NCBI GenBank assembly: GCA_019326865.1
Contig: GCA_019326865.1_4101.1
Length of the DNA stretch: 64,000 bases
Direction: 5' to 3' (one strand)
From: a phage
Made by a program: the position numbers and the translations under genes. Of this stretch, positions 36,194-36,265 are shown piece after piece. Numbering within the stretch: position 1 is the first letter of the stretch; each line of letters begins with the position of its first letter. Below the pieces are notes generated by a model. It was not told the DNA's origin, made no database searches, and worked only from the letters and a program-made list of their open reading frames with translations.

Positions 36194-36265
36194 GCAGGTA
36201 AAGTGTTGATGGCGGCATACGGTACTTCCGATTCTGTGGGTGGGGTTCAAATCCCCATACCTGCT
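36194..36265 (+). tRNA. degenerate tRNA-like element (possible pseudo-tRNA, anticodon loop reads UCC/Gly)
   Basis: Perfect 7-bp acceptor stem GCAGGTA/TACCTGC, canonical T arm TGGGG-TTCAAAT-CCCCA; D and anticodon stems weak. Confidence 0.35.

Follow-up and report, generated by a model that had tools for sequence, protein, structure and literature searches.

Two Asteriusvirus jumbo phages described in the literature, UE-S1 and Sharanji, were reported to carry a Gly tRNA among 7–8 tRNAs, the one in Sharanji being gp225, and the Sharanji paper described the group as lytic and without an integrase. At a homologous position, a tRNA-Gly is annotated in the records of UE-S1 (UES1_102), 121Q (gene 119, 'tRNA-Gly(tcc)'), SHEFM2K (tRNA0006), and SD-1_S14. 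Bacterial glycine identity is conferred by U73, G1-C72, C2-G71, C35, and C36, and the tRNA-Gly consensus also includes a (G10-Y25):G45 triple (PMC9976931). In the core of the molecule, the U8-A14 pair is considered "virtually universal", and a high-throughput study of a yeast suppressor tRNA found that one of nine scored replacements of U8-A14 worked, the functional replacement being A8-G14 (PMC4117946). In Anabaena, 23 of the 26 tRNAs of a horizontally spread array are aminoacylated in vivo, so tRNAs of such arrays can be functional (PMC8421152).

Here we analyzed a 72-nt element at positions 36194–36265 (+ strand) of a 64,000-nt stretch of phage DNA, which as a whole is referred to as the window. 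A sequence-only reading had called the element degenerate and tRNA-like, and had suggested a decaying duplicate of the tRNA-Gly(UCC) at 38709, a regulatory or processing signal, or a recombination site. Our analysis indicated that the element is very likely a tRNA-Gly(UCC) gene with which an Asteriusvirus phage supplies a functional accessory tRNA. The tRNA-Gly at this locus is already known, since it is carried in the public annotations of relatives.

Identification and structure of the tRNA-Gly gene

The element is a tRNA-Gly(UCC) gene of 72 nt in which CCA is not encoded. ARAGORN predicted a tRNA-Gly(tcc) with the exact coordinates 36194–36265, as one of seven tRNA genes at 36.2–41.1 kb. 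In a focused scan of positions 36100–36360 (261 nt), the Rfam tRNA model RF00005 matched the gene over its full length (1–71) with 40.3 bits, where the gathering score is 29 (E = 1.9e-7, or ~5e-5 when linearly rescaled to the whole window), and U30.U40 was the single non-standard pair. With both programs, the element was beyond chance by far, and the concern that tRNA covariance models might score it no higher than background was not borne out. When Rfam was run with default settings over the full 64 kb of the window at the gathering threshold, it returned the other six tRNAs with 50–68 bits and left this gene out. The miss was caused by speed filters rather than by a low score, as shown by the 40.3 bits of the focused scan. 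Of the window's seven tRNAs, this one scored lowest with the covariance model (40 versus 50–68 bits). Phage tRNAs with unusual cores can thus escape filtered scans, here one that scored 11 bits above the threshold. The homolog in SHEFM2K has a tRNAscan-SE score of 46.7 in its record.

From 5' to 3', the gene begins with the acceptor strand GCAGGTA (36194–36200, +), which forms seven perfect pairs with TACCTGC (36258–36264), followed by a segment comprising A8, A9, the D arm, and A26 (36201–36219, +), which reads AA GTGT TGATGGCG GCAT A, with the stem GTGT/GCAT and a loop containing G18 and G19. The anticodon arm (36220–36236, +) has the stem CGGTA/TTCTG, with a G28.U42 pair and a U30.U40 mismatch, and a 7-nt loop, CTTCCGA, with G37; both ARAGORN and the Rfam alignment placed the anticodon TCC at 36227–36229 (+). 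The 4-nt variable loop TGGG (36237–36240, +; positions 44, 45, 46, and 48 in the Rfam alignment) precedes the T arm TGGGG/TTCAAAT/CCCCA (36241–36257, +), which is canonical at G53-C61, T54, T55, C56, and A58, and the last nucleotide is the discriminator T (U73 in the Rfam alignment) at 36265 (+). The perfect 7-bp acceptor stem, the canonical T arm, and the UCC anticodon that had been noted from the letters were therefore confirmed. The weakness of the D and anticodon stems was confirmed as well, with two G-U pairs among the four pairs of the D stem and one G-U pair and one U.U mismatch in the anticodon stem.

Of the 21 pairs of a 7/4/5/5-bp cloverleaf, 20 form in the window sequence, the exception being U30.U40, and the conserved loop residues U33, G18 G19, T54 Psi55 C56, and A58 and the G53-C61 pair are all present. 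The non-canonical positions are 8, 14, and 21, where A8, U14, and G21 stand in place of the U8-A14 reverse-Hoogsteen pair with A21, and the U30.U40 mismatch and G37 are atypical. When folded alone, the RNA formed an approximate cloverleaf (−25.3 kcal/mol), and the strict cloverleaf had −20.2 kcal/mol, which is in the range of the other tRNAs of the cluster. The minimum-free-energy fold, with a z of only −1.7, favored 6 bp in the D stem and 3 bp in the anticodon stem. An extended, tRNA-Sec-like 6-bp D stem with a 4-nt loop, as this fold suggests, was rejected for the D-arm family described below, since positions 14 and 21 can pair in only 9 of its 20 aligned sequences.

All elements of bacterial glycine identity (U73, G1-C72, C2-G71, C35, and C36) are present in the gene. 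It also has G10, U25, and G45, whose identities would allow the glycine triple to form, and because (G10-Y25):G45 belongs to the glycine consensus, the seemingly weak G10.U25 wobble is part of that consensus. A scan of one genome per bacterial species recovered 63 contigs with an identical acceptor and T-arm stem and an NCC-compatible anticodon loop. They belong to Lachnospiraceae, Erysipelotrichaceae, Patescibacteria, and others, the discriminator is U in all of them, and all 12 of their loci that were checked with ARAGORN were tRNA-Gly. Judging from these bacterial acceptor stems, A3-U70 of the phage gene is not unusual. The tRNA-Gly genes of Lachnospiraceae, Erysipelotrichaceae, and Patescibacteria resemble the phage gene in the acceptor GCAGGUA/UACCUGC including A3-U70, U73, the GGGG/CCCC T stem, and a variable loop of 4–5 nt, but their U8/A14 is canonical and all pairs of their anticodon stems form, and their identity to it is ~68–75% (48–53 of ~71 nt).

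Conservation among Asteriusvirus phages

The region around the gene is 98% identical to Escherichia phage UE-S1 (1.8-kb region compared) and 85–90% identical to 121Q, PBECO4, SP27, and ~30 other Asteriusvirus jumbo phages. By sequence similarity, the window is part of an Asteriusvirus jumbo phage of E. coli. The tRNA-Gly genes of 121Q, UE-S1, Sharanji, and SHEFM2K are at the same locus, with a phrog_10970 gene upstream and a phrog_25670 gene downstream. A 101-nt query containing the tRNA and short flanks matched 23 Asteriusvirus records at 94–100% identity, with UE-S1 identical, and a lack of conservation in relatives, which would have spoken for a spurious element, can thus be set aside.

For the conservation alignment, we used the window and six relatives (seven sequences), which represent the variants among the 23 records. 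The tRNA is 97–100% identical across the seven sequences. UE-S1 is identical to the window throughout the aligned tRNA and flanks, and in the five other relatives the flanks, which comprise the upstream gene, the spacers on either side, and the downstream genes, are 75–88% identical. Across the seven sequences, variation was seen in 2 of the 72 columns of the tRNA and in 141 of the 639 columns of its flanks (Fisher p = 1.6e-5). One of the two variations is G28/A28 opposite U42, which turns a G-U pair into an A-U pair and keeps the pairing, and the other is at the unpaired position 44 (T or G); the window and UE-S1 have G28 and T44, while most Asteriusvirus relatives have A28 and G44. The segment containing A8, A9, the D arm, and A26 is invariant in all seven sequences. 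Neither substitutions at the rate of the flanks nor broken stems, which would mark a tRNA pseudogene, were observed in the relatives. This pattern is what purifying selection acting on a structured RNA leaves behind, and decay does not.

The gene is absent from 12 of the 35 records that matched the region (about a third), and it is therefore dispensable. The two flanking genes directly adjoin each other in fEgEco12 and CMSTMSU, which have no tRNA there, and in ph0011 other genes occupy the position. At the homologous locus of Escherichia virus TH47 (MT446416; L010 3840–3907), we found a 68-nt tRNA-Gly(UCC)-like sequence that shares the anticodon loop CTTCCGA with the 36194 gene but differs from it in the acceptor stem and has a shortened D arm. 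It was called by ARAGORN only with relaxed thresholds, had no tRNA match in Rfam, and had no match among other phage records. An ORF on its 3' side looked HNH-like by eye.

Genomic neighborhood and the second tRNA-Gly

The gene is located in a 128-nt gap and is co-oriented with all neighboring genes. The 5' spacer, or leader (36165–36193, +), has a conserved TATAAT at 36176–36181 with no good −35 hexamer, and the 3' trailer (36266–36291, +) runs into the GGTGAG ribosome-binding site of a 71-aa phrog_25670 gene (36292–36507, +), which lies between the tRNA and the second MTH-EW paralog. A scan directly upstream of the tRNA found no sigma-70-type site, compared with sites of 11/12 matches at 38709 and 39192, and no terminator-like site was found in the 128-nt gap. 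These two promoters (38671–38699 and 39153–39181, +) are near-consensus and of the sigma-70 type (TTGACT-17-TATAAT, 11/12 matches, with TG before the −10), and they end 10–11 nt upstream of tRNA-Gly(38709) and tRNA-Ser(39192), respectively.

The sequence-only reading was right in placing the element between MTH-EW genes, as the flanking genes at 35988–36164 and 36509–36688 are real paralogs (phrog_10970). Five paralogous MTH-EW genes of 54–59 aa (+) are scattered among the tRNA genes, the other three at 37762–37926, 37923–38087, and 38084–38248. The three copies that were scanned belong to phrog_10970 (unknown function) and had no Pfam match, the copies at 37923 and 38084 were included solely for their sequence resemblance, and the number of copies around the tRNA-Gly differs among relatives. 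An HNH homing endonuclease gene (NUMOD4 and HNH_3; 37203–37727, +) is located directly downstream of tRNA-Arg(UCU) (37098–37171). UE-S1 has its HNH gene elsewhere in the cluster and has a tRNA-Ser(UGA) before the tRNA-Arg, which is absent from the window. These differences between the window and UE-S1 in the HNH position and in the presence of tRNA-Ser(UGA) point to a tRNA cluster that is being reshuffled.

The tRNA-Ser at 39192–39283 (+; Rfam 49.9 bits) has the anticodon ACT, with an A34 that is unusual for a serine tRNA, and AGT accounts for 32% of the window's serine codons. The paper of a relative reported a tRNA-specific adenosine deaminase encoded by the phage, and through such an enzyme the anticodon may become ICU. 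In UE-S1 (L001 9289–9363), ARAGORN predicted a tRNA whose identity it left undetermined, with an 8-nt anticodon loop and an anticodon of four bases (tcat), which the UE-S1 paper lists as 'Undet' and which is not homologous to the window tRNA-Gly at 38709.

The second tRNA-Gly(UCC) of the window (38709–38782) is 66% identical to the gene at 36194, and the other tRNA pairs in the cluster are 48–65% identical. With the tRNA-Gly of T4-like phages the 38709 gene shares 82% identity, and with that of RaK2-like Klebsiella jumbo phages 90%, and its type was found in only a handful of Asteriusvirus records. The two genes represent separate tRNA-Gly lineages, the 36194 type being the usual one in the genus. 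The T4-type tRNA-Gly(UCC), to which the 38709 gene belongs, has the same anticodon as the 36194 gene, is presumed to read GGA and GGG in an AT-rich phage, and likewise sits in a tRNA cluster with homing endonuclease genes. It differs in having canonical U8/A14 and G3-C70, and the 38709 copy has its own strong promoter. An origin of the 36194 gene as a duplicate of the 38709 gene was rejected on the basis of the 66% identity and the T4/RaK2 type of the latter, and the suggested decay of such a duplicate is further contradicted by the conservation of the tRNA relative to its flanks.

A tRNA-Gly family with the same D arm

Among the 145 distinct tRNAs predicted in the loci compared, 117 have U8/A14, and the clear exceptions are the 36194 gene and tRNAs of a 39-tRNA array on a MAG contig (L036). 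We searched for the D arm with the pattern AAGTGTTG..GG..GCA plus a downstream NCC anticodon loop and T loop, and defined the family by A8 A9 G10 U11 G12 U13 U14 G15 .. G18 G19 .. G22 C23 A24 with an NCC anticodon; it is not a curated family. The 36194 tRNA-Gly matches this array-type A8/U14 motif exactly. The scan found the motif in 23 metagenomic contigs, 20 of which have 5–45 tRNA genes; one of these 20 (L078) is Asteriusvirus-like, and its tRNA-Gly matches the 121Q-type gene. IMG/VR yielded three more viral contigs with the motif, and arrays of 18 and 21 tRNAs lie on two of these, of 88 kb and 240 kb. The A8/U14 combination is present in 28 of the 40 tRNA-Gly genes of the arrays examined.

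The anticodon of family members is UCC, GCC, or CCC, and divergence is thorough in the acceptor, anticodon, and T stems. In an alignment of 20 distinct family sequences, 97.4% of the cells are paired, and 14 of the 21 stem pairs change on both sides. The covariation score of these 20 sequences was 0.68, versus 0.19 in shuffles (0 of 500 reached the observed score) and at most 0.13 when the partners were slid. At least 90% of the sequences have G as the third base of the variable loop (position 46). The anticodon loop of the 36194 gene departs from the family consensus at position 37 only, and U30.U40 is specific to the Asteriusvirus gene, most members having G30-C40. The D arm is the most conserved part of this wider family, although its invariance there is built in, because the family was collected with this motif. 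The search did not, however, dictate that the motif would turn up in many diverged tRNA-Gly genes, or that nearly all of these would lie in arrays. Together with the 97–100% identity among Asteriusvirus phages, this distribution does not fit an element called degenerate.

Four metagenome and MAG contigs (L036, L080, L086, and L088) have very dense arrays of 29–45 tRNA genes, which span 3–5 kb in L080 and L086 and ~8 kb in L088. The arrays of L036, L080 (in reverse), and L088 start with the same gene order, Tyr-Lys-Lys-Gln. Many tRNAs in the arrays examined are without U8/A14, and those with A8/U14 are mostly Gly, with some Pro, Thr, Lys, and Trp. The D-arm motif A8-A9-GUGU-U14-G15...G22-C23-A24 is what tRNA-Gly genes of large, horizontally spread arrays (L-arrays, of phages and mobile elements) have in common with the 36194 gene. 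In contrast to these arrays, the Asteriusvirus cluster is small, with 6–8 dispersed tRNAs interleaved with protein genes.

A search of IMG/VR with the neighboring 71-aa protein found only 121Q itself, as did an IMG/VR scan with the acceptor and T-arm pattern and a viral scan with the strict pattern. BLAST of the array-type tRNA-Gly against cultured phages and plasmids, for which the queries were short and diverged, gave nothing informative. Our literature search found no paper mentioning A8-U14 tRNAs. From the comparisons above, the A8/U14/G21 core was most likely inherited from a tRNA-Gly lineage that is found mainly in arrays of phage-type and unclassified contigs, and it is not a sign of decay.

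Proposed function and alternative explanations

We infer the transcription, processing, charging, and translational use of the tRNA as follows. The tRNA gene and the small early-type genes around it would share one + strand transcript, or the weak TATAAT, 13 nt upstream of the tRNA, would drive its transcription. Co-transcription with the neighbors is probable, because the genes are on the same strand, the gap has no terminator-like site, and the TATAAT is without a −35 hexamer. RNase P would then free the 5' end, and host 3' processing enzymes would trim the trailer. The 3' end would be completed by the CCA-adding enzyme of either the host or the phage; E. coli has its own CCA-adding enzyme. 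E. coli GlyRS would charge the tRNA via its U73, G1-C72, C2-G71, C35, and C36, and the charged tRNA-Gly(UCC) would read GGA, and GGG by wobble. A phage CCA-adding enzyme has been reported in the paper of a relative, Sharanji.

The most likely function is therefore that of an accessory phage tRNA decoding GGA and GGG, as judged from its sequence features. Across the 95 long ORFs in the window, at 33% G+C, 26% of the glycine codons are GGA and 26% of the arginine codons are AGA. In E. coli, the respective values are ~11% and ~4%. The higher use of GGA and AGA in a phage with 33% G+C fits the codon-compensation role that is usually assigned to phage tRNAs. Our literature search found no Asteriusvirus transcriptome or tRNA-seq study. 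The phage has a second tRNA-Gly(UCC) at 38709, and the function of the gene at 36194 is therefore redundant. This redundancy counts against a working tRNA, and so do the lowest score in the cluster, the A8/U14/G21 core, U30.U40 together with G37, the absence of the gene from about a third of relatives, the lack of a good promoter directly upstream, and the departure of the minimum-free-energy fold from the strict cloverleaf.

The same observations can be explained in other ways. A charged and translating tRNA could be kept mainly because its altered core or stems escape a host toxin or nuclease that targets tRNAs and disables the host tRNA-Gly, an explanation that overlaps with an accessory role in decoding and departs from it solely in why the gene is selected. 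That phage tRNAs can rescue infection from tRNA-targeting defenses is known, and such a role would parallel that of the T5 tRNAs that counter PARIS and retron defenses, which, like the tRNA studied here, are phage isoacceptors differing in sequence from those of the host. The departures from canonical tRNA-Gly at 8, 14, 21, 30-40, and 37 and the presence of two different tRNA-Gly(UCC) lineages in one phage would suit such a role, and tRNA-Gly is a known target of toxins (the toxSAS FaRel2 and the acetyltransferases AtaT and TacT). Unlike the case of T5, however, no defense system is known to target the features altered in this tRNA; toxins that recognize the 8-14 core are not known to us, and the anticodon loop is at odds with its family at position 37 only. 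The determinants of FaRel2 (G1-C72, C2-G71, G4-C69, and R5-Y68) are all present, as are U73 and G71, the determinants of TacT (PMC9976931). With these determinants retained, the tRNA would not escape either toxin, and escape from FaRel2 or TacT was rejected because all their published determinants are kept. We consider counter-defense, although plausible in general, improbable as the main selective reason.

Loss of function altogether is far less probable still. A functionless, decaying duplicate of the 38709 tRNA-Gly or of another tRNA would account for the lowest score in the cluster, the one stem mismatch, the three G-U pairs in the weak stems, and the non-canonical positions 8, 14, and 21, and both the absence of the gene from about a third of relatives and the reduced D arm of the TH47 version at the same locus, which ARAGORN recognized only with relaxed thresholds, would fit it as well. 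Yet a decaying gene would hardly remain at 97–100% identity between flanks at 75–88%, with 2 of 72 columns variable, both structure-compatible (p = 1.6e-5), nor would its unusual residues be invariant and common to a diverse, covarying tRNA-Gly family; the 66% identity to the 38709 gene is also close to the 48–65% of unrelated tRNAs in the cluster, and that gene is of the T4/RaK2 type, present in only a handful of Asteriusvirus records. On these grounds, a pseudogene is the least probable of the explanations weighed here. Hardly more probable is a tRNA-like cis element with no adaptor role, acting as RNase P/RNase E punctuation or as a stability signal of the polycistronic mRNA, or as a recombination or homing target. 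Excision of the tRNA from the 128-nt gap between co-oriented genes, with no terminator-like site or strong upstream promoter, would cut the transcript, HNH homing endonuclease genes move within the tRNA region, T4 SegB has been reported to cleave within tRNA genes, and the tRNA is cleanly present or absent between the same two genes in different relatives. Processing, however, is a by-product of any operon-embedded tRNA, and the intact anticodon (C35, C36), U73, and the full glycine identity set are not needed for it, yet they are invariant; with every published bacterial glycine identity element present, a role as a regulatory or processing signal only need not be invoked. As for the proposed recombination site, the tRNA had no match at E ≤ 1 in 5,426 complete E. 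coli genomes, and the group is described as lytic and without an integrase, which also led us to reject a host att site (attP in a tRNA gene). A working accessory tRNA-Gly(UCC) gene remains the explanation that we favor.

A broader interpretation is that the D arm marks an undescribed class of tRNA-Gly, horizontally spread by phages or mobile elements, in which A8-U14 takes the place of U8-A14(-A21) and position 21 is variable. We regard the existence of such a class as rather unlikely. If it is real, these tRNAs could not receive the host s4U8 modification, they might evade, or be selectively recognized by, a factor that reads the tRNA core, and array-borne and phage tRNA-Gly would have a distinct biochemical identity. 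If A8-U14 tRNAs are functional, as their conservation suggests, they would provide a natural experiment on the limits of tRNA core remodeling.
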